Assembly (NCBI GenBank): GCA_022763265.1
Contig: JALEGR010000020.1
Coordinates: 1-39,738, forward strand
Direction of reading: 5' to 3'
Length of the DNA: 39,738 bases
Origin: Minisyncoccota bacterium
GTDB taxonomy: Bacteria > Patescibacteriota > Minisyncoccia > Phycocordibacterales > CAJQIN01
Shown: in pieces, positions 1,094 to 16,885 of the stretch
How positions within the stretch are numbered: the stretch's first letter is position 1
How the letters are laid out: every line of letters starts with the position of its first letter
The notes under the pieces: generated by a model
The model's input: only the letters and a program-made list of their open reading frames with translations
What the model was told of the DNA's origin: nothing
The model's database searches: none
Translations under genes and position numbers: made by a program

Positions 1094-2059
1094 ATGAGAA
1101 CTACTGTGGGAGTATTAAGGGGAGGTCCGTCTGGAGAGTATGATGTTTCTTTGAACACCGGAGCATCTATTTTGAAGTCCTTAAACGAAGAAAAATATAA
1201 TCCTGTTGATATTTTTATAGCAAAAGATGGGCAGTGGCATCTGAATGGTTTAGTAAAAGATCCAAAAGAAATTACAAAAGATGTGGACATTTTATTTAAT
1301 GCTTTGCATGGAGAGTATGGTGAAGATGGCAAGGTCCAGAAGATTCTTGAAGATCATGGTGTTAGATATACTGGTTCTAATTCTTTTGGATCTGCTATAG
1401 GTATGAACAAATATTTATCTAAGAAAGCTTTTAGATCTTTTGGTATAAAGACACCGGAGTATACTGTTGTCAGGAGAGATAATATGAATGATTCCTTGGT
1501 TAAGGAAATATTTACATCATTTCCTCAACCTTCTGTTATAAAACCGGTAAGTGGAGGATCATCTCTGGGAGTATCTATTGCAGGGACACTTGATGATTTA
1601 AAGTGTGCTTTAGAAGAGGCTTTTAAGCACAGCAATACGGTTCTTATCGAAGAGTTTATCGATGGAAAAGAAGCTACTTGCGGAGTAATTGATTCCTTCA
1701 GAGGAGAAGATGTGTATGCCTTAATGCCGTCTGAAATTATTGATAAAACAGGCTCTGATATATGGGGGTATGAATCAAAGTATAGTAATGATTTACATGA
1801 GATAAAATGTCCTGGAAACTTTACAAAGAGTGAAAAGGATTTAATTCAAATCCTGTCAAAAGAGGCACATAAGTCACTAGGTCTAAGACATTATTCCAGA
1901 TCTGATTTCATGGTTCACCCTAAAAGAGGTATTTATATACTTGAAGTAAATACATTACCTGGTCTCACGGAGACTTCTCTTTTCCCACATGCCCTCAATT
2001 CCCTAGGCATTAGTTTACCTGAGTTTATAGATCACACTATTTCTCTTGCTTTATCTTGA
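1094..2059 (+). CDS. ddl: D-alanine--D-alanine ligase
   Basis: ATP-grasp Ddl signatures: VGVLRGGPSGEYDVS, HGEYGEDGKVQKILEDHGVRYTGS, LEVNTLPGLT. Start moved to the internal ATG at 1094 (MRTTVGVL). Confidence 0.9.
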   Translation: MRTTVGVLRGGPSGEYDVSLNTGASILKSLNEEKYNPVDIFIAKDGQWHLNGLVKDPKEITKDVDILFNALHGEYGEDGKVQKILEDHGVRYTGSNSFGSAIGMNKYLSKKAFRSFGIKTPEYTVVRRDNMNDSLVKEIFTSFPQPSVIKPVSGGSSLGVSIAGTLDDLKCALEEAFKHSNTVLIEEFIDGKEATCGVIDSFRGEDVYALMPSEIIDKTGSDIWGYESKYSNDLHEIKCPGNFTKSEKDLIQILSKEAHKSLGLRHYSRSDFMVHPKRGIYILEVNTLPGLTETSLFPHALNSLGISLPEFIDHTISLALS

Positions 2060-2085
2060 GGTTTAGGTACAATTTCTTTCTGTAC

Positions 2086-2162
2086 GGGCCAGTAGCTCAG
2101 TTGGCTAGAGCGCCTCACTTGCACTGAGGAGGTCGGGGGTTCGATTCCTCTCTGGTCCACCA
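2086..2162 (+). tRNA. tRNA-Ala (anticodon UGC), CCA encoded
   Basis: Cloverleaf folded by hand. Acceptor GGGCCAG/CTGGTCC with the G3:U70 alanine identity pair. Anticodon loop CTTGCAC. T-arm GGGGGTTCGATTCCTCT. Confidence 0.9.
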
Positions 2163-2268
2163 AAGTTAAATTGGAAGAAATGTATTGCCGATTCATCTCG
2201 TAAATACAACCTAGAGGAGTGGTTCGAAAATCCTTAACATTCAAGTGATTTTGTGGTATATATGTTTC

Positions 2269-2404
2269 GGAACCCTGGCACGACGTCAGGACCACAAACC
2301 CTAAAACCCCTAAATCGGGGAAAGGATAAAGAGGCGGTAGCGTAGATCATCTGTCTTTCAATAACACACTGCACCCCTGACTTCGGTCTCGGGTGCAGTT
2401 TTTT
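2269..2404 (+). ncRNA. candidate ~135-nt orphan transcript or leader of unknown class
   Basis: Extended -10 TGgTATATA (2254-2262), then a strong terminator at 2369-2404: CTGCACCC..GAC-UUCG-GUC..GGGTGCAG plus T6. Internal hairpin CCCC-taaatc-GGGG. Only a 27-codon SD-less ORF lies inside. Confidence 0.25.
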
Positions 2405-2518
2405 CATTAGAAGATCATTATTCTCCAAGATGATGATAGTAAACATCCGGTTAGTTGATACCTCCATTACTTAGGTGATTCCAAGGTGTTGCAAAAGTAT
2501 TGAAACATTACGCACCTA

Positions 2519-2547
2519 TTGACATGCAAACATATTTGTGCATAATA
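2519..2547 (+). promoter_or_regulatory. sigma70-type promoter TTGACA-17-ATAATA
   Basis: Exact TTGACA at 2519-2524 and ATAATA at 2542-2547, about 40 nt upstream of the channel gene start. Confidence 0.6.
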
Positions 2548-2588
2548 TTTTGCAGATCTGTAATCTTAAAAAGAAAGTGAGGTAAGAC

Positions 2589-3638
2589 TTGATCTTCTTC
2601 CAGAGGCTGCTTTGGTATTTGAGTCGATTCAGTACACTTTCCTTGATTGTGACATGCACTGTCCTTTTTTTTGGAGGATGGATGCTCATGGCATATTTTG
2701 AGGGTCCTGAATGTGGCTTCGTATCACCAGATGTCTTTTGGTGGTTTTTTATTGTCACTGGTACTACGGTTGGATATGGAGATTTCTCGCCAGTAACACT
2801 CGGTGGCAGGGTCACTGCTGCAATCATTATGATGGGTGGTATCGGTATATTTGCCGCCATTGTTGCAAAAATTACAGAACGAACAATCCAGTTCACACAA
2901 AGGAGAAACAAAGGCATGATCAATCTTCATATGAAGGGGCATGTAGTCATCTTTGGATATCGTGGTAAGGAAACTTCTCAGCTTGTCCGGGAACTTAGCG
3001 CTGATTCCGAAGGGGGTAGCGTGAAAATTGTCTTGTGTTCTGAAAACACAACTGAAAATCCTTTGAGTGGGGAAGCAGAATTTGTTAGTGGAGAGTTGAC
3101 GAGTGACGATGTTCTTGAAAGGGCCTGTGTGAATGATGCCAGGGGTGTAATTATCTATGGCAGAGATGATGCACAGACTCTAGCAGTTGGTATCGCAGTC
3201 AACAATGCCATGAAGAATGGTGCACATATTGTTGCCTATTTCGCACAGTCAGAAAATGCCATCCATCTGAAGAGGGTCAACTCAAAAATTGAGTGTGTAA
3301 CTGCTTTGTCGGTCCCACTTCTTGTTCAGGCCGTTCAGGATCCTGGCTCAACTGAGTCTATTGGAATTCTTGTAAGTAATCTTGATACTCAATGTACTCA
3401 ATACAGATTAAATCTTCCCACAACAATGGGGAGGGTCTTCTATGGTGAGTTGATGATCGCTCTCAAGAAGCGCTTCAATGCAACCATTATTGGTGTTGCT
3501 CGCTCTCATGACCACAATGCACAGGTTTGCCTTAATCTGGACGACAGTGTACAAGTTATTGGCGGTATGTCAGTTTTTTATATCGCCAAGTCACGCCTTA
3601 GTGTCGACCAGGTTGTTTCGTTAGTTAACGGTGCCTGA
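2589..3638 (+). CDS. two-TM potassium channel with C-terminal RCK/TrkA-N-like domain
   Basis: Selectivity filter TVGYGD (nt 2766-2783) sits between two hydrophobic helices. A Rossmann-like VVIFGYRGKETSQLVREL follows. TTG start lies 6 nt after the SD aagtgagg; the first in-frame ATG would delete TM1. Confidence 0.8.
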   Translation: MIFFQRLLWYLSRFSTLSLIVTCTVLFFGGWMLMAYFEGPECGFVSPDVFWWFFIVTGTTVGYGDFSPVTLGGRVTAAIIMMGGIGIFAAIVAKITERTIQFTQRRNKGMINLHMKGHVVIFGYRGKETSQLVRELSADSEGGSVKIVLCSENTTENPLSGEAEFVSGELTSDDVLERACVNDARGVIIYGRDDAQTLAVGIAVNNAMKNGAHIVAYFAQSENAIHLKRVNSKIECVTALSVPLLVQAVQDPGSTESIGILVSNLDTQCTQYRLNLPTTMGRVFYGELMIALKKRFNATIIGVARSHDHNAQVCLNLDDSVQVIGGMSVFYIAKSRLSVDQVVSLVNGA

Positions 3639-3654
3639 TTTACACAATCTTTCT

Positions 3655-3686
3655 AGCCGCTCGACATATGTCGAGCGGCTTCTTTT
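3655..3686 (+). terminator. rho-independent terminator (26-nt perfect palindrome)
   Basis: AGCCGCTCGACAT|ATGTCGAGCGGCT followed by tctttt. Confidence 0.75.
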
Positions 3687-3690
3687 AATA

Positions 3691-3719
3691 TTGACAAATA
3701 GGCATAAATTTGTTAATAT
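3691..3719 (+). promoter_or_regulatory. sigma70-type promoter TTGACA-17-TAATAT
   Basis: Exact -35 at 3691-3696 and -10 at 3714-3719, upstream of the 3780-8332 gene string. Confidence 0.6.
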
Positions 3720-3779
3720 CGCGAAGGAAATTTTGTTTTTTGACAACACAATCCTTACAAATGAAAGGAAGGAAAACGG

Positions 3780-4277
3780 ATGAAGTTGCTAATCTTTCTT
3801 GCAGTGATCGGAGCTATTGCTTTTGTTGTATACAAGTTGTCCGTAAAAAAGAAAGCCAATCCTGTTCAGGAGAAGGATCCAGTTAATGAACCTGAAGACA
3901 AGACAGTTGAAAACATTAGTATTCTTCAGGATCTCAATCTTCATGTTAGGAAGCATAGTCTTCCTGAATGTGTAATCCAGTCATTTGAATCTGTTGTTGA
4001 CTCTCTTCGAAGCTTGCTTCCGAGGGTTAACTCGGAACGTCCGAGCATGGATATTGTCTGGGTGGTGAATCGCATTGCGAATAAACATCTCCCGGAAATT
4101 ACTATGCGGTTTGTTTCCTTGTCTTGCGATGCACAAAACAGTAGTGCCAATCAGTTCATGAGTTCTATGAATGAACTTGATAAGGAACTGGGCGACATCA
4201 ACGACATTCTCGATTCACAAGACCAGCAGTTGTTTACGAATAAGGCGGAGTTTATCCGTCGTCGTTACGCACTTTAA
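3780..4277 (+). CDS. membrane-anchored helical protein, XpaC-like by position and architecture
   Basis: SD gaaaggaagg. N-terminal TM (LLIFLAVIGAIAFVVY) and a helical C-terminus. Lies directly upstream of a TelA-like gene, as xpaC does with yaaN in B. subtilis (from memory). Family assignment is unverified. Confidence 0.35.
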   Translation: MKLLIFLAVIGAIAFVVYKLSVKKKANPVQEKDPVNEPEDKTVENISILQDLNLHVRKHSLPECVIQSFESVVDSLRSLLPRVNSERPSMDIVWVVNRIANKHLPEITMRFVSLSCDAQNSSANQFMSSMNELDKELGDINDILDSQDQQLFTNKAEFIRRRYAL

Positions 4278-4316
4278 CCAACAACCAAACTTATCATTTC
4301 AGGAAAGGAACAAAAC

Positions 4317-5474
4317 ATGAGCAGTGAAGATAAACGAGAAGAAAAAACTGTTGCTGTAATTGTTAAGCCCAAGGGGCTTGATGAAGCTCAGGAACAGGAG
4401 CTGATCAGTGAAGCCGATAAAGTTGTCCAGATGGTTTTGAGTAACCCTCAGGACAGACAGTTGCCTGATAAGATCCAGGCTATTGGCCGCGATGCCCAAG
4501 AAGGGGCAAGTCGCAAAATTCAACTTCTGGATGCTCGACTTGGTAGTCTAATGAGTGATGCAACGGATGACGAATCCAAAATAACCCAGGGTCTGATTGA
4601 TCTTCGTGTTAAAATGGATCAGATTAATCCTCATACACTCGGCAAGCCTCCGGTGATTGTCCAGAAGTTTCCGTTCCTTACACCTTTTTGGAGTGCTTTG
4701 GGTCTTTTGCCCAATGCTAGGACGGTTTTGACCAAGATCAAGGCGCGTCATCAGACCGTTAAGACTAGTTTGGACTCGATCATTGAAGGTCTTTTTGCCG
4801 GAAAAGATGTTCTCTTGGAGGACATTGTTGAGCTGGAAGCCTTGTACCAAGGTGTACAAGTCCACCAAGCTGATATTCAGCAAAAGGCTTATGTTTGCGA
4901 TATGATTATGGAAGCACTTGACGAAAAGTCAAAGACAGCTGGAGACGAACTTGATAAGCAGCGCATTTCGATGCTTCTGCATCAAGTTGCGACAAAGGCC
5001 CAAGACTTGCGTACCATGGAGCAGGCGAATGAGCAATTCTTTGTCTCCCTGGACATGACGATCGAGGGTAATCGAACGCTTTCCGGACAAATTGATCGGG
5101 TAGCTACGGTTACCAGGGCCTTGTTGGCAATTGGTATTGCTATCACTGCCGCACTTCAAAGGCAACGTAAGGTTGCTGGTGCAGTTCAAGCAGGTCAAGA
5201 TTACGCTGGTGATCTTCTGGTGAATAACGCCAGTAACGTACGTACCCAAAGTGTGCAGATTGCTGAAATGGCAAATAATCCAGTTATTGCAATCGCTAAG
5301 GCACAAGAGGCTCATGATAACCTTGCTGCTGCTATTGAAGAGACTGAACAGGTTCGTAACAGTGGTCTTGTCAAGGCTCGTGAGTCAATTGCGGCTCTCA
5401 AGTCCATGAACAGTACTCTGGCACCCAAGCGACAAGCATTGCATGATACAACGCAAAACCGTATTGGGGGATAA
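4317..5474 (+). CDS. TelA-like (toxic anion resistance family) protein, 385 aa
   Basis: Length and all-helical layout match TelA/YaaN. It follows the family pattern from the N-terminal acidic region, through ...KIQLLDARLGSLM...LIDLRVKMDQINP..., to the C-terminal ...NLAAAIEETEQVRNSG.... Recognition is from memory of YaaN, not a search. Confidence 0.6.
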   Translation: MSSEDKREEKTVAVIVKPKGLDEAQEQELISEADKVVQMVLSNPQDRQLPDKIQAIGRDAQEGASRKIQLLDARLGSLMSDATDDESKITQGLIDLRVKMDQINPHTLGKPPVIVQKFPFLTPFWSALGLLPNARTVLTKIKARHQTVKTSLDSIIEGLFAGKDVLLEDIVELEALYQGVQVHQADIQQKAYVCDMIMEALDEKSKTAGDELDKQRISMLLHQVATKAQDLRTMEQANEQFFVSLDMTIEGNRTLSGQIDRVATVTRALLAIGIAITAALQRQRKVAGAVQAGQDYAGDLLVNNASNVRTQSVQIAEMANNPVIAIAKAQEAHDNLAAAIEETEQVRNSGLVKARESIAALKSMNSTLAPKRQALHDTTQNRIGG

Positions 5475-5509
5475 GTTTCTAAACCAAACCATCAAAAGAA
5501 GGAGGTTCC

Positions 5510-6148
5510 ATGCTTCAAACAGCTGAACCGGTAAGCACTACTAAATCCTTTGATCGGATTCGTCGTCTCCAAAAGCCTTTGAGCAAAGAGGAGGCGGTGA
5601 ATGCCACGATTAAGGACATCAAGAAGGGTGGTTTCTTGGAATTCCAAGGTACCACTTACGAAGTTATTTCTGTCGGCTTGTATACCGAAACCAACAAAGA
5701 CTATTCCCAGAAAAAGAAATTCTTCAGTGTTGAGCTTGAACTCGTGGATGTCATGAGTGGCAAGACGCTTTGGATGGAATGGGAAGAAGACGATGAGGTT
5801 GAAATCTGTGTCTCTCAGAGCCGTCATTCTCTGCGTGAAGTTAGGAATGAGGACGGCGACGTCATTAGTGACCCCTGGGATTATACCGACGAGGGCGAAT
5901 GTCTAGTTTTCCAAGGTATATCCTATTGGTACGATGATGATTGGCCTTCTGTGTACAAACGCGAAGGTCAGGATGATGAAGACAAGGTATACATGCATGA
6001 CTTTGAGTCCGAAAATGGCACATGTCTTTCCATTGAGAAGTGGATTGACGATGATGACACTTGTGAATTTCAGGTCTATGTATCAAAAAATGTCAGAGCC
6101 AGTGAGATCCAGATCTTACAGATCGGAGATCAAAATGGTGGCCAGTGA
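5510..6148 (+). CDS. DUF4178-like protein
   Basis: SD gaaggagg. Matches the remembered family pattern: KKGGFLEFQGTTYEVISVGLY ... WMEWEEDDEVEI ... FQGISYWYDD ... CLSIEKW ... EIQIL. Unverified without an HMM. Confidence 0.45.
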   Translation: MLQTAEPVSTTKSFDRIRRLQKPLSKEEAVNATIKDIKKGGFLEFQGTTYEVISVGLYTETNKDYSQKKKFFSVELELVDVMSGKTLWMEWEEDDEVEICVSQSRHSLREVRNEDGDVISDPWDYTDEGECLVFQGISYWYDDDWPSVYKREGQDDEDKVYMHDFESENGTCLSIEKWIDDDDTCEFQVYVSKNVRASEIQILQIGDQNGGQ

Positions 6149-6692
6149 AATCTACGTTGACCAGAGTGCTACAGAGCTTAGGCTGACAGCATGTACTGGT
6201 GTTGTGGATACTAGGCAATTCAATGTTCTTGAATCAGGCAAGATTAACAGTCAAGACTGGGTTTTGGAGTTTGGGATTATTGGCGGAAGCCACTTCTTCA
6301 TTCTCTATGGCCCAGAAAATACGATCTTATCTGAAGTCTTTGCTTGTACGACAGTTGATCCTTGTGGCAGAATCCTTTTCCAGGGTGACCCGCGTGGTTC
6401 AGCTAATATGACATTCCCGATTCAAAAACTCGTTTACAGCTTCCAGTATCATCTTATTACTAACTGGGAGATTGCAGACCAAGTCATAAGGGAAATGGAA
6501 AGTGGTGCCTCTGGTAAGTCAGACAGGCTAGTTCTACTAGCACATGACTTCCCTCATAATCCTGAAGATACTCGTGTCCCCAAGACCATTGTGGAAGCGA
6601 GAGCTGATTCTTTGGGTCTAAAGATTCGAACTATACACTCATATCCACAGGAGGATATGCTTGTGCAAACAATTTCACGTGTAAACCTTTAA
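6135..6692 (+). CDS. hypothetical protein (185 aa), positionally equivalent to DUF2617 in actinobacterial DUF4178/DUF350/SpeE loci
   Basis: The ATG at 6135 is preceded by ggagat and overlaps the upstream stop by 14 nt. The longer 5934 start would run through the preceding gene. Confidence 0.5.
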   Translation: MVASEIYVDQSATELRLTACTGVVDTRQFNVLESGKINSQDWVLEFGIIGGSHFFILYGPENTILSEVFACTTVDPCGRILFQGDPRGSANMTFPIQKLVYSFQYHLITNWEIADQVIREMESGASGKSDRLVLLAHDFPHNPEDTRVPKTIVEARADSLGLKIRTIHSYPQEDMLVQTISRVNL

Positions 6693-6715
6693 CAAAAAAG
6701 AAGGAGGTATATCTT

Positions 6716-8332
6716 ATGATGAGATATGCTCATTGGACTTTGGTACTCTGCCTTTTTGCTCTTGTGGGCTGTGGCGGATACTCGAAGGAAGAGAAGAAAT
6801 CGGTTGAAGTTGCCAAGAAAGAGCTTGATGACGCTAAGGCGTACGTTCAAACCCAGAAGGCAAAATATGAGCGAACTAAGGCTCATGAAGACTTTGCTGT
6901 ATTTGTTCGATATGCTGAGGATGAGAACTGGGACAAGTTTTTCCAGGACGCATCTTCCGAGGTTATCCATGCTCAGGGTGTCTATGGAAAGGAAATCCTG
7001 CCCGTCCTTGAAAGAAATGACAACAAGGAATGGAATCAGTTGAATAGTAATTTGACTCGAATCCGAACCTCTTCAAGGAACGCTCGGGATTTAGCAAAGA
7101 AAGCCTTTCAGCGTCTTGACTTTCTTCGTGAGGTTAAGAAGAACGCACCTGAAATGATCAAAAAAGCTGAAGGGGAATTTCAGCAGGTTGTGACTATCGT
7201 CGAGGATGCTTCGGTTGTTACTGAAAAAGCCAAGACTGATCATGTCGACTCTGCCAAGGAAATTGGTTCACGCTTTGCTATTTTGACAAAGTGGCAAGAC
7301 GAAGCTGGTAAGGCACTGGCAACATCACAAGTGGAAATCAAAAGGGAATTCCCTGACTACTCCGCAATTGGTGATAGTACAGTCCTTGTCAGTTCGCATC
7401 TTGAGGCCGTTAAGGGACATGTCCCTAAGTACAAGGAACAGATTGCTCATTTGTATGAGAGCTATTCCAAAATTCTTGAGGATATGAAGGTTGAATACTG
7501 TGTTCAGGTTGGTCGGACGAGTTGGGATAACTCGTCTGACTTTAATACTGAAAATGATTACACCTATCCGGCTAAGCAGGTTTCTGAAGAAGTTTACACC
7601 TACTTTGCTGGGCTTTCTGACTCGACTGTGCTTGCTACGGGAAGTAGTTCCCCACGGGTCAAAATCAACAGTAAAATGTGGAATGCCTTGGGGATTTCTC
7701 CTCGAGCATATTGGCCCAGTAGTCATGATGATGCCGAATGGTGGATTAGTAATGTTTCTGAGAAATACTACCATCGGTACTCTATTGTGTCGGCTGGCGA
7801 ACAAAAAACTACTGATTGGGTCGCTGTCTCAGAAGATGTCTATGGGAAACATTGGGAAGATCTTGGTATGGCCATTCTTACCAAACCCTTTGGCGTCTTT
7901 GAAGATGATGTGATTGAAGAAGCTTCTCCTCCTGGAATGGCACTTGTCGGAAACTCAAAGTACGGTGAGTGGAAACAGGATAGCGGGGGCGGTGGTTCTT
8001 TTTGGGAGTTTTACGGTAAATACCAGTTCTACTCAATGCTATTGGGTGGAAACCGTTACTACCACTCCGAGTGGGATACTTGGAACCGCGACTATCGTGG
8101 TCGAGGTGCCTACTATGGTGTTGGCAGTAATGGGTATACAAGGTACGGCACATACAGTGACCGTGTTGCGAGCTCGCCTCGATACTCAAAGAGCACTTTT
8201 GCTTCCCAAGGAGGATTCAAGAGTGCGGCATCTGATGTTAAGTCTGGCAATTTCAACGCCAGCCGGACATCTACTGTTCGAGGTGCTGGTGCCTCCGCCA
8301 GAGGCGGTGGTCCTGGCGGTAGCGGTAAGTAG
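6716..8332 (+). CDS. large lipoprotein (538 aa): helical K/E-rich N-half, W/Y/G-rich C-half with YjfM/DUF1190-like tail
   Basis: SD AAGGAGG at 6701. Signal peptide plus lipobox LFALVG-C. The C-terminus (GGGGSFWEFYGKYQFYSMLLGG ... QGGFKSAAS ... RGAGASARGGGPGGSGK) resembles the E. coli YjfM tail as I remember it. Confidence 0.7.
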   Translation: MMRYAHWTLVLCLFALVGCGGYSKEEKKSVEVAKKELDDAKAYVQTQKAKYERTKAHEDFAVFVRYAEDENWDKFFQDASSEVIHAQGVYGKEILPVLERNDNKEWNQLNSNLTRIRTSSRNARDLAKKAFQRLDFLREVKKNAPEMIKKAEGEFQQVVTIVEDASVVTEKAKTDHVDSAKEIGSRFAILTKWQDEAGKALATSQVEIKREFPDYSAIGDSTVLVSSHLEAVKGHVPKYKEQIAHLYESYSKILEDMKVEYCVQVGRTSWDNSSDFNTENDYTYPAKQVSEEVYTYFAGLSDSTVLATGSSSPRVKINSKMWNALGISPRAYWPSSHDDAEWWISNVSEKYYHRYSIVSAGEQKTTDWVAVSEDVYGKHWEDLGMAILTKPFGVFEDDVIEEASPPGMALVGNSKYGEWKQDSGGGGSFWEFYGKYQFYSMLLGGNRYYHSEWDTWNRDYRGRGAYYGVGSNGYTRYGTYSDRVASSPRYSKSTFASQGGFKSAASDVKSGNFNASRTSTVRGAGASARGGGPGGSGK

Positions 8333-8377
8333 CGTTTATCTTTAAAACACTAACAAATAACCCGAAAGGAAACACAC

Positions 8378-9232
8378 ATGATTCTTAACCTTGCGACCTT
8401 GCTTCAGTCACTTGTTTTTTCTGCTGGCGAAATTGCCGCCATGATCGGCGTCCTATTTGTGGCCAAGTTGCTTGTTGACTTGTTCACTCAAGTTGAATAT
8501 GACGAAGAGATCGAAGGGCGTAGCAACCTTGCGGTTGCTTTGCATCGAGCTGGATTTTTTGCCGGTATCGGTATCGGTCTTCTGGCTACGGTCAGTGATG
8601 CTTCCGGACATTTCTGGAAAAGCATTGCTCTCATGTTCTGGGATGGTGCAAACATCGCATTCATGATGCTTATTGCCAAGTTTGTTCTTGATCAGGTTAT
8701 TATCCCTGGTGTTCAAAATACCAGGGAGATCCTGGACGGGAATCTGTCTGTAGCATGGGTTGAGTTCGGTGGCTATATTGCTACTGGTCTCATTGCCTAC
8801 GGCGCAGTCAGTGGTGAAGGTGGCGGACTTTTATCCAGCTATGTCTTCTTTGTCCTTGGGCAGGTGGCACTTGTTATTGTCACTGTTCTTTTTGAGAAGT
8901 TCACACCTTTCAATTTGATTAAGGAAATTCACGAGGGAAATGTCTCTGCCGGTGTTATGCTGTGTGGGATTCTCATATCTCTCGGTGTTGTTCTCGAAGC
9001 CAGTCTATCTGGTCCGTTTGTCGGATGGACGACTGATATATTCAGTTTCGTGGTTTATGCTGGTGTGGGACTTGTTTTCCTCTGGGCCATTTACTTGGCT
9101 GTGGATAAACTTTTCTTGCCCAATACAACCATGACTGTTGAGATTCAGCGTGACAGGAATGTCGGCGCCAGTGCTCTGACGGCCACGATGATGGTTGTCT
9201 GCAGCCTGGTTGTTGCACATGCTGCGCTCTGA
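8378..9232 (+). CDS. polytopic membrane protein with four DUF350 (YjfL)-type repeats
   Basis: Four internal units of TM-linker-TM share the motif E-I-x-x-G/R-N-x-[SAG]-[AV]: EIEGRSNLAVA, EILDGNLSVAW, EIHEGNVSAGV, EIQRDRNVGAS. Confidence 0.6.
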   Translation: MILNLATLLQSLVFSAGEIAAMIGVLFVAKLLVDLFTQVEYDEEIEGRSNLAVALHRAGFFAGIGIGLLATVSDASGHFWKSIALMFWDGANIAFMMLIAKFVLDQVIIPGVQNTREILDGNLSVAWVEFGGYIATGLIAYGAVSGEGGGLLSSYVFFVLGQVALVIVTVLFEKFTPFNLIKEIHEGNVSAGVMLCGILISLGVVLEASLSGPFVGWTTDIFSFVVYAGVGLVFLWAIYLAVDKLFLPNTTMTVEIQRDRNVGASALTATMMVVCSLVVAHAAL

Positions 9233-9254
9233 TCAAAAAACATGATCTTTTCTA

Positions 9255-9286
9255 ATGCCTTGCTCCTAACGGAGCAGGGCATTTTT
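9255..9286 (+). terminator. rho-independent terminator
   Basis: ATGCCTTGCTCC-taac-GGAGCAGGGCAT plus TTTT. Confidence 0.75.
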
Positions 9287-9287
9287 A

Positions 9288-9316
9288 TTGACTTTTTATT
9301 ATATTAGTGTATAATT
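9288..9316 (+). promoter_or_regulatory. sigma70-type promoter TTGACT-17-ATAATT
   Basis: -35 at 9288-9293 and -10 at 9311-9316, upstream of the SpeE-like gene. Confidence 0.55.
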
Positions 9317-9367
9317 GTGCGTTAGAGACCGTACATTGACTTTCAACCAAAATGGGAGGCTCGCATA

Positions 9368-11059
9368 ATGACGTCTGTTCAACTCGGCATTAATATGCCA
9401 AGAAAGCATGGGGTTGCCAGGATTCTGCTTGGCTCATCAATGTTTTTCACAGGAGCTAGTGGTTTGGTTTCCGAGTATGTTCTGGCAACTGTGGCTACAT
9501 ATATTCTCGGTAACTCTATTGAGCAAATGTCGATCACTGTGGCTCTTATGATGTGTGCCATGGGTATTGGTGGATGGGTCCAACGATTCATTAAAGACAA
9601 TGCTCTGATAGATAAGTTTATATTGCTTGAGACAATACTGGCACTTCTGATTGGGTTCGCTCCAATTTGTATCTATGCAGCCTTTGGGCTGATGGAGCAC
9701 CACTTTTATGTTGTTATGTACTTTTTCATGATTGCAATAGGTATGCTAGTTGGGTTTGAAATTCCTCTAGTCATGCGAATTAATGAGAAGTATGTAGGTG
9801 CTCTGAAGGATAATGCCTCTGAAATATTTGGAATGGATTACATCGGAGCATTTGTCGGAGCTTTAATCTGGGCACTCTTCTTGCTGAAGACATTTCCTTT
9901 AACGGAAATCAGCTTCCTGGTTGCTGGTAGTAACTTTATTGTTGCAATTGTGACCTTTGGTTACTTTGCTTCAAAGGGTTCAACTGTTAGGACCAAGACT
10001 CTGTTTGTTCTGATCATGTGTCTAGTTGCTCTACTGCTTTATGGCGGTCTGAGTAACAGAGCTTGGAGTAATAAATTAGAACAACGTCTTTACGACGATC
10101 CGATCATTTTAGCAGAAACCACTCGGTACCAACGGATTGTGGTTACTCACTACAACAAGACTGATGATTACCGTCTGTACATTAATGGCAATCTTCAGTT
10201 CTCGAGTGTGGATGAGGCTATTTACCACGAACTTCTAGTCCATCCGGTAATGAATTTGGCCAAATCCCACCAAAGAGTTCTCATACTTGGTGGTGGTGAT
10301 GGTCTTGCTGTACGGGAGGTTCTAAAATATCCGGACGTTTCAAGTATTCACCTTGTGGATCTTGATCCGGATATGGTCAGGATCTGTCGTACGCATCCGG
10401 CCCTGAGGGCATTAAATGGTGGTGCTTTTGATAGTGCCAAGATTACGACTTCTGTCCCTGATATCTCAACGAAGTATTTGAGAAGGGTTATGCAAGATTC
10501 ACCAGATTCTCCTCGTGGTGAGGTGATAAAGGAAAGAGTTGCTAGGGTTGAAGTTATCAACATTGATGCAGATCTTTTCCTTAATTCCGTAAAAGGACTT
10601 TGGGACGTTGTAATCATTGATTTCCCAGACCCGAGCTCTGTTGAGCTAACAAAGCTCTATAGCAAGCAGTTCTACCAGAAGCTGAGACGACTTCTGGCAC
10701 CTGGTGCTCTAGTCTCCATCCAAGCAACTTCTCCGTATCATGCCAAGGAAAGCTACCTGTGCATTAGGCGGACAATGGAAGCTGCTAGATTTAGCACTTT
10801 GCCCTACCATCAGAACGTTCCTTCGTTCGGGGACTGGGGGTGGTTTCTGGCAAGTACCGAAAAGGATTCATCGGTCATCCGAGTGCAAGCAGAAAATGTT
10901 GCTTTTGATGTTGATACTCGCTATATCACCAAGGATGTATTTCTTTCTTCCATGGTGTTTGGCAAAGGTTCTCTGACGTCAAAGCACAAGAAAATTAACT
11001 CCTTAATGGAGCCCAACCTGCTAGCATTCTATCGGGATGAAAGTTGGTTGATTGATTAA
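9368..11059 (+). CDS. membrane-anchored spermidine-synthase-like polyamine aminopropyltransferase (563 aa)
   Basis: About 7 N-terminal TM helices (aa ~17-228). The SpeE fold follows: VLILGGGDGLAVREV, LVDLDPDMV, NIDADLFL, IIDFPDPSS, LAPGALVSIQATSPY. Confidence 0.8.
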   Translation: MTSVQLGINMPRKHGVARILLGSSMFFTGASGLVSEYVLATVATYILGNSIEQMSITVALMMCAMGIGGWVQRFIKDNALIDKFILLETILALLIGFAPICIYAAFGLMEHHFYVVMYFFMIAIGMLVGFEIPLVMRINEKYVGALKDNASEIFGMDYIGAFVGALIWALFLLKTFPLTEISFLVAGSNFIVAIVTFGYFASKGSTVRTKTLFVLIMCLVALLLYGGLSNRAWSNKLEQRLYDDPIILAETTRYQRIVVTHYNKTDDYRLYINGNLQFSSVDEAIYHELLVHPVMNLAKSHQRVLILGGGDGLAVREVLKYPDVSSIHLVDLDPDMVRICRTHPALRALNGGAFDSAKITTSVPDISTKYLRRVMQDSPDSPRGEVIKERVARVEVINIDADLFLNSVKGLWDVVIIDFPDPSSVELTKLYSKQFYQKLRRLLAPGALVSIQATSPYHAKESYLCIRRTMEAARFSTLPYHQNVPSFGDWGWFLASTEKDSSVIRVQAENVAFDVDTRYITKDVFLSSMVFGKGSLTSKHKKINSLMEPNLLAFYRDESWLID

Positions 11060-11072
11060 GTCATATCGAAGA

Positions 11073-11102
11073 CCCCGGCACATATGTGCCGGGGCTTTTT
11101 TA
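11073..11102 (+). terminator. rho-independent terminator (22-nt perfect palindrome)
   Basis: CCCCGGCACAT|ATGTGCCGGGG followed by cttttttt. Confidence 0.75.
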
Positions 11103-11154
11103 TATTGCAACTCTGTGGTAGATTCTTTTATAGAGAAAGTTCTAAGAAAAGGAA

Positions 11155-11394
11155 ATGGCAATGCAAATGGAATATATTGGAGAACATTGGTATATCTGGT
11201 TGTCTGTTGTGGCATTTGGATATGCTTCTGCTCTGTACATCTTTTTCGGACTTTTGAGAAAAGCTAAACAGGAGGGTAGTTTATCTCAATCTGTATTCTT
11301 TTCATATACTTTCAAAATGATCGGCTTTGGCCTTATTGGAACTAGTGGTCTTATCTTTTTTGCACTTTCTTTAGTTTTCAATCTTAGGTCTTGA
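11155..11394 (+). CDS. small two-TM membrane protein (about 77-79 aa)
   Basis: SD aaggaa. Three alternative ATGs at 11155, 11161 and 11167. Two hydrophobic helices. Own terminator. Confidence 0.5.
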   Translation: MAMQMEYIGEHWYIWLSVVAFGYASALYIFFGLLRKAKQEGSLSQSVFFSYTFKMIGFGLIGTSGLIFFALSLVFNLRS

Positions 11395-11401
11395 AAAACT
11401 T

Positions 11402-11423
11402 AACCCCACTGGAGTGGGGTTTT
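11402..11423 (+). terminator. rho-independent terminator
   Basis: CCCCAC-tgga-GTGGGG plus TTTT. Confidence 0.7.
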
Positions 11424-11504
11424 ATGTATTGACTTTTTATAAAAATTACGATAGTTTCAGAAAAGAGCTGTGGGAGTCTCAAAAACACCAAAAGGAGCTT
11501 TAAC

Positions 11505-11813
11505 ATGCGGAAAATGGGATCCAGTAAGGGTTTTGCCCTTATCGAGCTACTGGTTGTTATTAGCATCATTGGTATTCTCTGTATTGCTTGTTTAATCGGA
11601 ACTGCTGCTTTTGTTGGAAATTTCTGGTTTACCGAAGGTGGCATCTTGAGAAAGGCTCAGTTGCAAGATGAAAGCCTGGTTTCTGTTCGGGATGTGAGAA
11701 GGAATATTTTCTCATATTCTGTTGTCATCATCGAGAACAGTGATGGAGAAAGAAAGACAGTCAACGTTGGGTCAAATATTTTGTTTAGCTACGATCTTGA
11801 AGAAACTGAGTGA
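11505..11813 (+). CDS. prepilin-type N-terminal cleavage/methylation domain protein (small pilin or pseudopilin, 102 aa)
   Basis: Class III signal MRKMGSSKG|FALIELLVVISIIGIL with Glu at +5. SD aaaaggag. Confidence 0.75.
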   Translation: MRKMGSSKGFALIELLVVISIIGILCIACLIGTAAFVGNFWFTEGGILRKAQLQDESLVSVRDVRRNIFSYSVVIIENSDGERKTVNVGSNILFSYDLEETE

Positions 11814-11830
11814 GCTTTGCCATTCAATGT

Positions 11831-11858
11831 CCCGCACCATGTGCGGGGCTTTTCTTTT
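11831..11858 (+). terminator. rho-independent terminator
   Basis: CCCGCAC-cat-GTGCGGG followed by gcttttcttttt. Confidence 0.7.
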
Positions 11859-11921
11859 TACCTATATTATAGTACTATCCTTAATTGGAACTGTTTTACC
11901 TCTTTTCATAAGGAACGCTGT

Positions 11922-12146
11922 ATGTTGAATGGTGCTGTTTGTCGTTCGAGGCCCCCTAAGAGTCTTCCCGATGCAAAATCTCTTCTGGATAAGAAGTTGG
12001 CGACTCTTCCTGTCAAAGACCGGGACGAGATCAGGGCTGTCATGGAAGGGAGAAATGTCAAATCTGAGACCATAAGGAAAATCCTGAGGAAACATGGGTT
12101 CAAGGGTCGGGCCAAGCAGCTGGTTACCAGCAGGTTGAAAATGTAG
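11922..12146 (+). CDS. small basic protein (74 aa), possible HTH
   Basis: The ATG at 11922 follows aaggaa. The longer 11817 start would read through the terminator at 11831. K/R-rich. No firm domain call. Confidence 0.4.
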   Translation: MLNGAVCRSRPPKSLPDAKSLLDKKLATLPVKDRDEIRAVMEGRNVKSETIRKILRKHGFKGRAKQLVTSRLKM

Positions 12147-12155
12147 AAAAGGTAC

Positions 12156-12180
12156 GCGAGGACTAAGGTCCTCGCTTTTT
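12156..12180 (+). terminator. rho-independent terminator
   Basis: GCGAGGAC-taag-GTCCTCGC plus TTTTT. Confidence 0.75.
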
Positions 12181-12188
12181 GCTATACT
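12180..12188 (+). promoter_or_regulatory. extended -10 (TGcTATACT) 6 nt upstream of the zwf ATG, implying a leaderless mRNA
   Basis: No SD. An ATG at 12195 would be at or next to the predicted +1. Confidence 0.45.
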
Positions 12189-12194
12189 GTCTCC

Positions 12195-13562
12195 ATGAAA
12201 AGACATAATGTGCCAACTATTTTTGCCATCTTTGGTGTTACCGGGGATTTGGCTCAGAAAAAAATATTTCCAGCTCTATTTGATTTATACAAAAAGAAAT
12301 TACTTCCCGAAAAATTTCAAATAGTCGGTATTGCAAGAAGAGATCTTTCACTTGATGAGTTTAAAGATTTTGTTAGAGATACTATTGATGGAGAGGATGG
12401 CTTTATTGATCATCTTAAATACTCACAGGGTCAGTTTGATGATGGGACTACATACCAAAAGGTAAAGGATCTAACAGAAGAAATTGATAATGAATGGGGA
12501 CAGTGTTCGAATAAGCTGTTCTATCTTTCAGTGCCTCCGTCTTTGTATGAGCTCATATTAAACAATCTCTCTTCTGCAGATCTTTCTAAGGTTTGTGATG
12601 ATATGAATGGTTGGACCAGAGTTTTGATAGAGAAACCCTTTGGTAAAGATGTGGATACTGCAAGAAAGCTAGATGAACTACTAGGGAAATTATTCAAAGA
12701 AGAACAAATATATCGTATAGATCATTATTTAGGGAAACAAACTTTACAGAATATTTTAGCTTTTAGATTCTCAAATACAATTTTTGAACCTTTATGGAAT
12801 AGAAAATATATTAAATCTATTGATATAAATCTTTTTGAAGAGAAAACTATTGAAAGAAGGGGATCTTTCTATGATGAAAATGGTGCTCTAAGGGACGTTG
12901 GTCAAAACCATATTCTACAAATGTTGACCTTGGTTGCTATGGAGATGCCAAAATCAATGACTTGTAGTGTTATAAGAAATGAAAGAGAAAAAATTCTTTC
13001 AAAAATTACAAAAAGAGGAGAAACTATTAGAGGACAATACAAAGGGTATTTGAATACTGAGGGTGTAGCCAGGGACTCAAAAACTGAAACATTCTTTAGA
13101 ACAGTTGCTTGTATAAAAAATAGTAGATGGAAAGGGGTTCCTTTCATCCTAACAAGCGGTAAGGGTCTTTCGGAGTCCAAAGTTGAAATTATAATAAATT
13201 TCAAAGATATGACCACAGGTTCCTTTATGCCAAAACAGCATAAGGATCAGGAGTGCAATAAGATAACTATTAATATTCAACCAAAAGAGAAAATCTCTAT
13301 ACTTTTCTGGGTTAAAGTCCCTGGATTTCTGGATAAAGTGGAACCCAGAGAGCTATCTTTTTCTTTCCATAATGAAAAGAATGAACATATCAATGCATAT
13401 GAGAAGGTGTTATTTGATTGCATATCAGGGGATCAGACATCTTTCATTAGTACCAAGGAAATATCTTCTAGCTGGAAATATATAATGTCTGTAATGGACA
13501 ATATGCAAAATAAAGATTTAATTAATTATAAAGTTGGAGAAGATCCAAATAACATAAAATAA
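12195..13562 (+). CDS. zwf: glucose-6-phosphate 1-dehydrogenase
   Basis: FGVTGDLAQKKIFPALFDLY, IEKPFGKD, RIDHYLGKQ. Confidence 0.9.
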   Translation: MKRHNVPTIFAIFGVTGDLAQKKIFPALFDLYKKKLLPEKFQIVGIARRDLSLDEFKDFVRDTIDGEDGFIDHLKYSQGQFDDGTTYQKVKDLTEEIDNEWGQCSNKLFYLSVPPSLYELILNNLSSADLSKVCDDMNGWTRVLIEKPFGKDVDTARKLDELLGKLFKEEQIYRIDHYLGKQTLQNILAFRFSNTIFEPLWNRKYIKSIDINLFEEKTIERRGSFYDENGALRDVGQNHILQMLTLVAMEMPKSMTCSVIRNEREKILSKITKRGETIRGQYKGYLNTEGVARDSKTETFFRTVACIKNSRWKGVPFILTSGKGLSESKVEIIINFKDMTTGSFMPKQHKDQECNKITINIQPKEKISILFWVKVPGFLDKVEPRELSFSFHNEKNEHINAYEKVLFDCISGDQTSFISTKEISSSWKYIMSVMDNMQNKDLINYKVGEDPNNIK

Positions 13563-13563
13563 T

Positions 13564-14466
13564 ATGAGATTAGGATACATTGGTTTAGGGAAAATGGGTA
13601 AAAACATGGTCAAGCTAATGCTTGAGCAGGGTATTGAAATTGTTGCATTTAACAGATCACTCGAGTCTGTAAAAGAGGTAGAAAAAGATGGGGCTATAGG
13701 AGCATATTCATATGAAGATATCTTCAAAAATCTAGATACGGACCAAAGAATCATTTGGTTAATGGTTCCTCACGGTGCAGTAGACCAGGTACTGACTGAT
13801 CTTAAGCCACATCTAAAGGCAAATGATATTGTTATAGATGGTGGTAATTCAAACTACAAAGATACTCTAAGAAGAGGAAAAGAAATGGAAGAGATGGATA
13901 TTGTTTATATGGACGCTGGAGTTTCAGGTGGTCCTTGGGGAGCAAGACATGGAGCATGTCTTTTAATTGGAGGAGATAAGGATGTGTATAACTTACTTGA
14001 ACCAATCTTTCAAGCGGCAGCTGCTCCAGATTGTTATCAGTATCTAGGTAAGCTAGGTGCAGGACACTTTGCGAAAATGGTTCACAATGGAATTGAATAT
14101 GGAATGATGCAAGCAATTGGTGAGGGTATGAATGTTATTAGAGAGTCAGACTTTGATTTCAGCCTAAAAGACGTCGCCAGGATATATAACTGTAGGAGTG
14201 TTATAGAGTCCAGACTAGTTAACTGGCTACATGAAGGATATGAAAAATATGGAGAAGAGTTGGAAGATATCTCTGGAGAGGTGACACACTCTGGTGAAGG
14301 ACAGTGGACGATTGAGACAGCTAAGGAAATGGGGCTTGAAGTTCCAGTTATTGAAGAGTCATTCAACTTTCGTGTGAACTCTAAAGGAAACCCAAGTTAC
14401 ACTGGTAAAGTTGTTTCAATGTTAAGAAATATGTTTGGTGGACATGATGTTTCAAAAGATGAGTAA
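13564..14466 (+). CDS. gnd: 6-phosphogluconate dehydrogenase, short (about 300 aa) decarboxylating type
   Basis: YIGLGKMGKNM Rossmann motif, DGGNSNYKDT, GVSGGPWGA, HFAKMVHNGIEYG. Confidence 0.85.
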   Translation: MRLGYIGLGKMGKNMVKLMLEQGIEIVAFNRSLESVKEVEKDGAIGAYSYEDIFKNLDTDQRIIWLMVPHGAVDQVLTDLKPHLKANDIVIDGGNSNYKDTLRRGKEMEEMDIVYMDAGVSGGPWGARHGACLLIGGDKDVYNLLEPIFQAAAAPDCYQYLGKLGAGHFAKMVHNGIEYGMMQAIGEGMNVIRESDFDFSLKDVARIYNCRSVIESRLVNWLHEGYEKYGEELEDISGEVTHSGEGQWTIETAKEMGLEVPVIEESFNFRVNSKGNPSYTGKVVSMLRNMFGGHDVSKDE

Positions 14467-14806
14467 CCTTCTTAGGTTGGCAGAGAAGGTTAGGGAAGAT
14501 TTTGAAAATTCTTCTATACCTAGAGAAAAACTAATTAATTTGTACTCAAAGTATAATCAGGCAGTTGATGCTGAAAATTTTATTGAAACAGCTATTAGAA
14601 TCTTCCCTAGACTTAATTGTGGACTTGCGTCTATATATTTACAAAGTTTAATTAAGGAAGGTAAAGTAACTAGGGGTAAATATAAAGGGATTGATCACAC
14701 ATTCATAATGTTTGATGATAATCGTGTATTAGATATAACTGCAGACCAATATGGTGGTCCTAGAGTATATTTGGGCAAACTTAAAAAACCCTGGTCATTA
14801 ATATGA
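14459..14806 (+). CDS. hypothetical protein with minimal transglutaminase-like Cys-His-Asp pattern
   Basis: LNCGLASIYLQSLIKEGKV..GIDHTFIMF..RVLDITAD has transglutaminase-core-like C-H-D spacing. Start is uncertain (14435-14459). Overlaps the gnd stop. Confidence 0.4.
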   Translation: MSNLLRLAEKVREDFENSSIPREKLINLYSKYNQAVDAENFIETAIRIFPRLNCGLASIYLQSLIKEGKVTRGKYKGIDHTFIMFDDNRVLDITADQYGGPRVYLGKLKKPWSLI

Positions 14807-15456: not shown

Positions 15457-15509
15457 AACGATATGCTATCATCGTTTGTGGAACTGAACATTTTTTGAAA
15501 AGGAAGATA

Positions 15510-16136: not shown

Positions 16137-16141
16137 AAATC

Positions 16142-16167
16142 AAGACCCATACTGCTGGGTCTTTTTT
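16142..16167 (+). terminator. rho-independent terminator
   Basis: AAGACCCA-tactgc-TGGGTCTT plus TTTT. Confidence 0.75.
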
Positions 16168-16174
16168 GTTACTC

Positions 16175-16203
16175 TTTACCAAAAAGTGTAATTGATGTAG
16201 GAT
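16175..16203 (+). promoter_or_regulatory. promoter TTTACC-17-TAGGAT for paralog B
   Basis: Spacing is exactly 17 nt. It lies upstream of the SD gaaagg and the ATG at 16238. Confidence 0.4.
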
Positions 16204-16318
16204 CTGGTTTAGAAACTGACCATTGAAAGGAACTTGTATGGAAAATATTATTGCTAAACCTCGAGACTAGGAAGATTGTCTTCACCTTGGATCAATCTTA
16301 GGGGTTGAGCCAGGTGAT

Positions 16319-16849: not shown

Positions 16850-16857
16850 GTATGTTA

Positions 16858-16882: not shown

Positions 16883-16885
16883 ATA

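Follow-up and report, generated by a model that had tools for sequence, protein, structure and literature searches.

The question raised by this locus is how a block of about 10 kb with an elevated guanine-plus-cytosine (GC) content came to lie between a tRNA gene and zwf on contig JALEGR010000020.1 of a Minisyncoccota bacterium, and what it encodes. The whole stretch that was analyzed (39,738 nucleotides, nt) is called the window in the following. The original prediction, which was made from the sequence alone, had proposed a horizontal acquisition directly after tRNA-Ala, and it had suggested that composition profiles be computed and that the ddl-tRNA-Ala-zwf junction be compared in relatives. 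The results of these and further analyses make it very probable that positions 2165-12193 are DNA that was inserted between the native tRNA-Ala(UGC) gene and a leaderless zwf promoter, and that the core of this insert (2519-11094) is a horizontally acquired and partly ameliorated module of eight genes, which is patchily distributed across phyla and likely has a function in envelope stress.

The Insertion Site in Comparison with a Collinear Relative

The genes outside the block, called the backbone here, include ddl, zwf, gnd, pgl, pgi, a ROK kinase gene, ychF, leuS, alaS, mnmA, and rpsM. The best matches of Ddl were all from Patescibacteria, with identities of at most 64%, and the host chromosome is of the Paceibacteria type (Patescibacteria). 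Searches for exact matches to the Zwf and SpeE proteins of the window returned no entry. The block lies between two anchors:

2086..2162, + strand: tRNA-Ala(UGC), native left anchor; found by ARAGORN and by Rfam (66.9 bits), 86% identical to the tRNA of the relative L172
12180..12197, + strand: right anchor, extended -10 box TGCTATACT; 6 nt before the ATG of zwf (12195), leaderless start

The relative L172 (Ga0136558_1000251, 32 kb, GC 0.417) was obtained by a scan of metagenome contigs with Zwf. Its identities to the window and the segments of collinear DNA are as follows:

Ddl: 60% identity, L172 7009-7953; DNA of window 1100-1992 collinear with L172 7003-7892
tRNA-Ala(UGC): 86% identity (DNA), L172 9056-9130; window 2085-2164 collinear with L172 9055-9134
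Zwf: 67% identity, L172 10001-11389
Gnd: 70% identity, L172 11422-12315; zwf-gnd of window 12194-14450 collinear with L172 10000-12308
Pgl: 58% identity, L172 12413-13021
Pgi: 66% identity, L172 13046-14020
ROK kinase: 71% identity, L172 14029-14835; pgi-ROK of window 16900-18622 collinear with L172 13055-14799
YchF: 73% identity, L172 15591-16703; ychF of window 20021-21113 collinear with L172 15602-16706
Start of leuS: window 23355-23687 collinear with L172 17771-18103

The order of terminator, TATACT, and ATG upstream of zwf is also the same in L172. The homology between the window and L172 ends at position 2164, two bases past the tRNA gene, and it restarts at position 12194, one base before the ATG of zwf. 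Between these two breaks the window contains 10,029 bp (2165-12193), whereas L172 contains 865 bp. The comparison of the junction thus bears out the acquisition directly after tRNA-Ala, and the breaks nearly coincide with the borders that had been proposed, i.e., tRNA-Ala on the left and the leaderless zwf promoter on the right.

Further loci were retrieved with ddl and zwf. The closest relative in a scan of genome contigs with ddl was L001, a 5.2-kb contig that ends 535 bp past the tRNA. More distant ddl relatives have kept the ddl-tRNA-Ala pair, with different genes after tRNA-Ala, and in more distant relatives ddl, tRNA-Ala, and zwf are still found within a few kb. The genes of the block were absent from all 80 zwf loci and all 80 ddl loci, which include many Patescibacteria and were inspected with up to 10 kb of flanking sequence. 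The short site in L172, the 160 loci without the block, and the composition described below therefore make a gain in the lineage of the window far likelier than a loss elsewhere.

Three further stretches of the window are longer than their counterparts in L172 or have no counterpart there (14450-16900, 18622-20021, and 21113-23355), and the local GC content rises to about 0.40 in them. Among the stretches without a match in L172 there is one gene with a GTG start that is led by a Shine-Dalgarno sequence (SD) (18906-19280; GC content at third codon positions, GC3, of 0.39). These stretches may be smaller lineage-specific insertions.

Composition and Limits of the Block

The GC content of positions 2163-12190 is 0.438, compared with 0.363 in the left flank (1-2085) and 0.364 in the 27.5 kb of the right flank (12191-39738). 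A sliding analysis in 1-kb segments gave values of 0.41-0.48 over about 2.0-12.0 kb and of 0.32-0.41 outside. The difference was also seen for single genes: the 11 open reading frames (ORFs) of the block have a median GC3 of 0.42, compared with a median of 0.275 in 27 genes of the backbone (Mann-Whitney p = 4e-6). The original prediction had counted twelve genes, one more than were found here. Synonymous codon choice is shifted for nearly all degenerate amino acids (summed chi2 = 669, 41 degrees of freedom). The shift toward CTG, GCC, and GGC that had been noticed before was found to be real for all three codons, with fractions in block versus backbone of 0.18 versus 0.06, 0.25 versus 0.15, and 0.20 versus 0.08, respectively. 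In addition, CGN codons are used in place of AGA, and ATA is avoided. The difference in composition is located at synonymous sites.

The tetranucleotide correlation to the backbone is 0.48-0.78 within 2-10 kb and at least 0.88 elsewhere; the left flank reaches 0.93, although it was outside the reference set. The profiles of GC, GC3, tetranucleotides, and codons thus all deviate in the block, as had been expected for a GC-richer block after tRNA-Ala. At the right end the composition approaches that of the backbone from about 11.1 kb onwards, and the GC content of 11095-11504 is 0.344. Therefore, 2519-11094 is the clearly foreign core, and the right-hand 1.1 kb is mixed.

Expression Signals of Backbone and Block

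Most backbone genes have no SD. In several of them, a box resembling TATAAT, often in the form TGnTATAAT or TATACT, ends 6-11 nt before the ATG. The boxes were identified from the sequence at the following sites:

12180-12197: TATAAT-like box, upstream of zwf
21820-21840: TATAAT-like box
27680-27698: TATAAT-like box
28385-28405: TATAAT-like box
32355-32373: TATAAT-like box
36205-36225: TATAAT-like box
37350-37370: TATAAT-like box

The presence of such boxes so near to the ATG suggests that mRNAs of the backbone are leaderless. The same appearance, without SDs and with TATAAT boxes, is seen in the flanks of the related operons on the Patescibacterial contigs L086 and L090, which are described below. 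The backbone operons zwf-gnd and pgi-ROK also have no SDs; their stop and start codons overlap or are adjacent.

The block has SD leaders and TTGACA/TATAAT promoters within this mostly SD-less, leaderless backbone. The median energy of the duplex with the anti-SD is -7.8 kcal/mol for the block and -2.2 kcal/mol for the backbone (p = 3e-4). The claim that all genes of the block carry an SD of the AAGGAGG type was too general; the full motif was found only before 5510 and 6716, and the remaining ORFs have partial SDs, but as a group they are indeed far stronger than those of the backbone. The many GC-rich hairpin terminators that had been reported were recovered, i.e., the scan revealed 22 terminator-like sites, compared with 9.2 +/- 2.9 expected from shuffled sequences. 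Six of the intergenic terminators are strong and GC-rich, and a strong intrinsic terminator lies behind each transcription unit of the block.

The Genes of the Block

The core eight genes form one module, which is divided into three transcription units. Each unit has a sigma-70-type promoter of its own, is led by SDs in its genes, and is closed by an intrinsic terminator. The first unit contains the K+ channel gene, the second unit the genes for p165, TelA, the DUF4178 protein, the DUF2617 protein, the lipoprotein, and the DUF350 protein, and the third unit the aminopropyltransferase gene. The features of the block are listed below (TM, transmembrane; HTH, helix-turn-helix):

2163..2518, + strand: non-coding left end; GC 0.407, terminator-like hairpin with T-run at 2369-2404
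2519..2546, + strand: promoter-like P1, TTGACA-16-CATAAT, 11/12 positions
2589..3638, + strand: K+ channel with 2-TM pore, TVGYGD filter, and RCK/TrkA_N domain; Pfam Ion_trans_2 3e-10, TrkA_N 5e-8
3655-3680: terminator behind the K+ channel gene
3691..3719, + strand: promoter-like P2, TTGACA-17-TAATAT with TG
3780..4277, + strand: p165, first gene of the operon; N-terminal TM helix (one TM segment) and all-helical domain
4317..5474, + strand: TelA-family protein; Pfam PF05816, 150 bits versus cut-off 30
5510..6148, + strand: DUF4178 protein without TM segment; Pfam PF13785, 44 bits versus cut-off 25
6135..6692, + strand: DUF2617 protein; Pfam PF10936, 57.8 bits versus cut-off 22.3; start overlaps the stop of the DUF4178 gene by 14 nt
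6716..8332, + strand: lipoprotein of 538 aa with LVGC lipobox; helical bundle, beta-rich C-terminal domain, Gly/Arg-rich tail
8378..9232, + strand: DUF350 (YjfL) membrane protein with two repeats; Pfam PF03994, 149 bits; about 8 hydrophobic segments
9254-9283: terminator behind the DUF350 gene
9288..9315, + strand: promoter-like P3, TTGACT-16-TATAAT, 11/12 positions
9368..11059, + strand: membrane-fused spermidine-synthase-like aminopropyltransferase of 563 aa; NCBIfam PRK03612, 608 bits versus cut-off 472, full length
11073-11094: terminator behind the aminopropyltransferase gene
11155..11394, + strand: small 2-TM ORF of 79 aa, backbone-like GC3 of 0.30; terminator 11402-11421
11505..11813, + strand: type IV pilin-like ORF with prepilin N-methylation motif; Pfam N_methyl 27.8 bits versus 21.2, TIGR02532; terminator 11829-11849
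11922..12146, + strand: p74, small GC-rich ORF, GC3 0.57; sub-threshold match to HTH_Tnp_Tc3_2, 22.7 bits versus 31.5; terminator 12156-12175

Both domains of the K+ channel are above the Pfam cut-offs and its translation contains TTVGYGD, which identifies it as an RCK-regulated K+ channel; orthologues are present in the same operon in the contigs L085, L086, and L090. The alignment revealed homologues of p165 in the same position in L081, L085, L086, L088, L090, and L091. No Pfam match was found for p165, and a sequence search of the PDB with the profile of the p165 family yielded nothing significant. A structure model predicted from the single sequence is all-helical, at low confidence (pLDDT 60). 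An assignment of p165 as a CesT/Tir-like chaperone was rejected, because this low-confidence model and the alignment predict an all-helical protein with an N-terminal TM helix. The match of TelA to its family is full-length, with residues 50-369 corresponding to positions 13-327 of the 332 positions of the profile; a sequence search of the PDB with TelA gave nothing significant. The start of the DUF2617 gene was chosen from the translation of the ORF and from homologues of 182-214 aa.

For the lipoprotein 52 homologues were found, none of which has a Pfam domain, and the Cys of the lipobox is nearly invariant. The AlphaFold model (pLDDT 87.3) shows a long bundle of helices with a beta-rich domain C-terminal to it, and a fold search against the PDB gave no match at E < 0.09. 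The aminopropyltransferase has at least five strong hydrophobic segments before residue 230, which are fused to the SpdSyn domain. Its motifs YHE, GGGDG, DLD, and DFPDP align with those of solved aminopropyltransferases (6bq2, 7xif) and are invariant in 16 homologues; judged from the sequence, the motifs for binding of decarboxylated S-adenosylmethionine (SAM) and amine and for catalysis are intact.

The non-coding left end (2163-2518) has no homology to L172, L001, or other fetched loci. Positions 2163-2410 fold better than all 200 shuffled sequences (z = -2.6), and Rfam detected no family in the 2163-2588 spacer or elsewhere in the window besides the tRNA. At the right end, the ORF of 79 aa has no homologue in any fetched locus. 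The small ORF p74 may hint at a relic of the HTH domain of a transposase. This assignment was not adopted and is kept as a hint only, because the Pfam match is below the threshold and no match was found in plasmids or in the fetched loci.

Relation to Known Operons and Likely Function

The eight core genes belong to an operon type that has been described, which had been missed in the original prediction. Ravi et al. (2024, mSystems, PMC11237479) defined a group of operons with a 7TM-SpdSyn fusion, an 8-TM YjfL/DUF350 protein, a novel lipoprotein, DUF4178, and a CesT/Tir-PspA pair, and listed DUF2617 and a ligand-gated K+ channel in sister variants. The module shares with this second group of PMC11237479 the membrane-fused SpdSyn-like enzyme, the 8-TM DUF350 protein, a lipoprotein, and the cytosolic DUF4178 protein, arranged in a cluster of six to eight genes. 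The lipoprotein has about 520-570 aa in both cases and is otherwise unannotated; that of the window may correspond to the 'Ctha_1186 domain' protein of the described group. It has a conserved lipobox and occupies the expected place in the cluster, and an orthologue is present in every copy of the operon. In the places of PspA and CesT/Tir, however, the window has TelA and the TM-anchored helical p165, and no PspA or CesT domain is present. TelA is not mentioned in PMC11237479. DUF2617 and the RCK K+ channel are further additions relative to the second group. The module thus represents a variant with TelA within an operon type known from the literature, and not the described form itself.

Two other systems are similar in part. 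The enzyme shares its architecture (PRK03612 over the full length) and the link to DUF350 with the fusions of a membrane domain resembling the major facilitator superfamily (MFS) to SpdSyn (MFS-like membrane domain::SpdSyn; Li et al. 2019, Biochem J 476:2579, cited in PMC11237479). The yjfIJKLMC-type cluster of E. coli, which represents the third group of PMC11237479, encodes a PspA homologue, a K+ channel, a 4-TM DUF350 protein, and an ATP-grasp ligase. It shares with the window DUF350 and a ligand-gated K+ channel beside a polyamine-type enzyme and a membrane-stress protein. In contrast to the window, its enzyme is an ATP-grasp glutathionylspermidine-synthetase-like protein and not an aminopropyltransferase, and the DUF1190, DUF2491, and DUF2170 genes have no counterparts in the window.

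For the described operons it has been proposed that the sensing of extracellular stress is linked with polyamine levels or with the aminopropylation of another substrate, and with PspA-type membrane dynamics (PMC11237479). TelA itself has been connected with envelope stress. According to Collins et al. (2010, cited in PMC12791056), nisin and tellurite affect a telA mutant of Listeria more strongly. Based on the domain content and this published neighborhood analysis, the module is likely, with moderate confidence, a system for cell-envelope stress and homeostasis that is built around membrane-localized aminopropylation. Decarboxylated SAM would provide the membrane enzyme with an aminopropyl group, which would be transferred to a polyamine or to another substrate near the membrane. 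Fusions of SpdSyn with membrane domains reportedly co-occur in genomes with SAM decarboxylase (Li et al. 2019), and their reported inability to rescue an E. coli speE mutant would suggest a substrate other than putrescine. TelA, in the place of PspA, would act in the stress response at the membrane, p165 and the lipoprotein could serve in sensing or scaffolding at the membrane surface, and the K+ channel might couple the response to the ion balance.

Copies of the Module in Other Genomes

The nearest homologues of the SpeE-like enzyme (55-59% identity) are from Desulfatibacillum and other Desulfobacterales, Dehalococcoidia, Arcobacter, Magnetococcales, and Bipolaricaulia, and a few are labelled as Paceibacterota, Parcubacteria, or Nanoarchaeota. 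The family of SpeE-like proteins comprises more than 6,000 members. The copies of the operon are as follows:

L085: organism unassigned, GC 0.587; all eight genes
L090: Patescibacterium, 222.6-kb contig; all eight genes in exactly the order of the window
L086: Moranbacteria, 59.7-kb contig; all eight genes, channel last
L088: Bipolaricaulia; seven genes
L081: Desulfatibacillum; without TelA and channel
L091: Parcubacteria, 14.8-kb contig; without TelA

The assignment of L090 is based on its Sua5, which among named matches has only Patescibacteria. All copies are at differing genomic sites, and none of them lies directly after tRNA-Ala(UGC); in L091, a tRNA-Ala(GGC) gene is located about 2.6 kb past the end of the operon. 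The Bipolaricaulia copy is the only one in an overtly mobile context, i.e., its flanks (1-610 and 9144-11008) contain an IS110 transposase, a HicAB toxin-antitoxin pair, and an IS630-type transposase (DDE_3 + HTH). Another contig, L083, which is labelled as Paceibacterota (7,974 bp, 55% GC), carries DUF350 and the SpeE-like gene. A GC content of 55% seems high for Paceibacterota, and the binning of this contig may be questionable. In the Moranbacteria contig, a second gene with a Spermine_synth domain (20649-21722) is located about 6 kb downstream of the operon.

The accessory proteins of the copies are 23-45% identical to those of the window, and the enzymes 51-59%. In all these comparisons, the Moranbacteria copy is the one farthest from the window; the identity of its TelA is 24%, compared with 38-41% for L085 and L088, and that of its lipoprotein 33%, compared with 38-40% for the copies outside the candidate phyla radiation. 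Neighbor-joining trees with bootstrap were calculated for SpeE alone (121 sequences) and for six concatenated proteins (7 taxa). The only well-supported group was formed by the Desulfatibacillum and Bipolaricaulia copies, which pair across phyla at 93% bootstrap. An identification of the donor by these trees failed, and the support around the window was weak. In the low-GC contig of Moranbacteria the operon has a GC3 of 0.31, compared with 0.24 in the flanks (p = 8e-4), and is the only SD-led stretch. No significant contrast between operon and flanks was found in L090 and L091, the contigs of which have 45% GC.

The donor of the block would have been richer in GC and would have initiated translation with the help of SDs; a host bacterium and another Patescibacterium are equally plausible in this role. 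Nothing favors a transfer from a host to its episymbiont. The operon is present in at least three further Patescibacteria, and the nearest copies are about equally distant, at 59% or less.

Probable Mobility of the Module and Possible Modes of Entry

At the homologous site of L172, a direct repeat of the 3' end of tRNA-Ala was detected 161 nt downstream of the tRNA, which is exact over 15 nt (21/25). It resembles the scar of an attachment (att) site at the same locus, and from its sequence the site looks recombination-prone. The tRNA-Ala gene of the window encodes CCA, whereas the genes of L172 and L001 end with CA and an A-run. An inverted copy of the 3' half of tRNA-Ala, interrupted by a hairpin, follows the tRNA in L172 (9110-9300) and L001 (4650-4760) and is absent from the window.

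The copy flanked by insertion sequences, the pair with 93% bootstrap across phyla, the distant Moranbacteria copy, its contrast in GC3 and SDs, and the tRNA repeat in L172 together speak for a mobility of the module. We read this as a mobile module with a usual GC content of about 45-59% that entered low-GC Patescibacteria more than once and was partly ameliorated there.

Phages were considered as a vector and rejected; viral contigs contain soluble SpeE-type genes and one membrane-type homologue (36%), and the other genes of the operon are absent from them. With tRNA-associated genomic islands, which have been reviewed in PMC2704930, the block shares the atypical composition, the accessory cargo, the location directly 3' of a tRNA gene, and the absence from a collinear relative. 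It lacks the integrase, the flanking direct repeats, and the other mobility genes of such islands. The block could have entered on an integrase-borne element that decayed later, or by recombination or transposition at the recombination-prone tRNA site.

Evaluation of the Alternative Explanations

Several observations weigh against the proposed insertion of an acquired module. L172 is distant, with protein identities of 60-73%, and synteny alone leaves a loss in the L172 lineage formally possible. The entry is without a marker of its mechanism, i.e., no domain of an integrase, recombinase, or transposase was above the threshold in any ORF of the block (Pfam, NCBIfam), no second copy of the tRNA 3' end was found in the window with up to 3 mismatches in 23 nt, a generic repeat search revealed no family of direct repeats flanking the block, and a local alignment of the left and right junctions was no better than that of shuffled sequences. 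Domain, repeat, and shuffle tests thus agree with the original prediction, which had noticed neither an integrase or recombinase nor a convincing repeat of the tRNA end. The weak similarity between TTGGAAGAAATGTA and TTGAAAATGTA, which it had named as a candidate repeat, was not the best alignment of the junctions, and an integrase-mediated island of the classical kind that it had associated with tRNA 3' ends is not supported by the window, in which integrase and att repeat were not found. The inserted interval includes the three small genes at 11155-12146, which cannot be assigned to the acquired unit with certainty in view of the mixed composition and the lack of homologues. Neither the time nor the source of the transfer is given by the trees, which are star-like and place the window with L085 and L090 in 43% of the replicates, and no donor stands out, with best identities of 59% for the SpeE-like enzyme and 30-45% for the others. 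As to the function, the 39.7-kb window contains no gene for a SAM decarboxylase, the putative source of the co-substrate, and no component of the operon type has been characterized biochemically.

It could be argued that the operon is an old Patescibacterial trait that was inherited vertically and was lost in L172 and other relatives, and that GC, codons, and SDs were kept by selection and are not marks of a foreign origin, for example because leaderless initiation is not available to genes inside a polycistronic mRNA. At least four other contigs labelled as Patescibacteria indeed carry the operon (L090, L086, L083, and L091), with an identical gene order in L090; in roughly every second replicate of the SpeE tree the window is the neighbor of L090 or L085, and occasionally it is that of the Parcubacteria copy; and the raised GC3 and the SDs of the Moranbacteria copy could reflect an operon-specific constraint. 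Nevertheless, vertical inheritance is very improbable. Each Patescibacterial copy is at a different site, none of the others directly after tRNA-Ala(UGC), the Moranbacteria copy is farther from the window than the copies of Desulfobacterota and Bipolaricaulia, and the concatenated tree does not unite the Patescibacterial copies in one clade. Polycistrony alone does not force SDs, as the backbone operons zwf-gnd and pgi-ROK work without them, and such a large deviation in codons and tetranucleotides would be unexpected under selection on membrane proteins. Further arguments against vertical inheritance are the empty site in L172 and the lack of the block in each of the 160 loci retrieved with ddl or zwf. 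A false joining of a fragment from a GC-richer organism by assembly or binning is extremely improbable. Such an artefact could account for the sharp change in composition at both edges on a contig from a metagenome-assembled genome, yet false joins would have had to arise twice and independently, both times precisely at an intergenic boundary in an otherwise collinear locus. Moreover, backbone sequence is present on both sides on a single contig, the right-hand 1.1 kb grades back toward the composition of the backbone, and long contigs of Patescibacteria contain the operon in three further cases (59.7 kb, 222.6 kb, and 14.8 kb).

A classical tRNA island would be a possible sub-scenario of the proposed insertion, in which an element with a tyrosine recombinase integrated into the 3' end of tRNA-Ala and the integrase and attR have since been deleted or have decayed. 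This would fit an insert that starts within 2 nt of the tRNA 3' end, the extreme 3' end of the tRNA that differs between the window (CCA) and L172 and L001 (CA and A-run), the repeat in L172 that looks like an att scar, and p74, with its weak match to a transposase-type HTH, at the right edge. The scenario is unlikely, since integrase, recombinase, and att repeat are missing from the window, the match of p74 does not reach the Pfam threshold and finds no support among plasmids or fetched loci, no other copy of the operon lies at tRNA-Ala(UGC) or beside an integrase, and the operon is on no viral contig. The insertion of a horizontally acquired module after tRNA-Ala, irrespective of its vehicle, is therefore the preferred explanation.

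Further Features of the Window

Two observations concern the backbone. The leuS gene (23274-26555, 1093 aa) encodes a NUDIX hydrolase domain at residues 377-506, which is inserted after the editing domain and represents an unusual fusion. Furthermore, two odd domain pairings were found, i.e., an ATP-cone with an Mrr-type restriction endonuclease (32371-33213) and sigma-70 region 4 with HARE-HTH (26597-27637).

Significance

Gene transfer into these bacteria, islands adjacent to tRNA genes, and this type of operon were already known, and nothing is overturned by the present results. They add a cleanly delimited horizontal gain in a reduced, uncultivated Patescibacterium, the breakpoints of which could be mapped within a few bases by comparison with a collinear relative. 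A more far-reaching idea would be that Patescibacteria have repeatedly and independently captured a self-contained operon with promoters and SDs of its own, in which TelA replaces PspA, that the enzyme modifies a substrate of the membrane or cell surface instead of producing free spermidine, and that an envelope made from host-derived material is thereby remodelled or stabilized. In this far-reaching form it is distinctly unlikely; if it were true, episymbionts that are auxotrophic for lipids and polyamines would have gained an envelope tool, and the window would be the cleanest natural example of its capture. Taken together, the recurrence of the module in several Patescibacteria and in unrelated phyla suggests a portable function that is useful for minimal envelopes, and its SD-led foreign genes with their own promoters and terminators, in the mostly leaderless, SD-poor sequence of the window and of a Moranbacteria contig, illustrate how acquired genes can be expressed in these bacteria.

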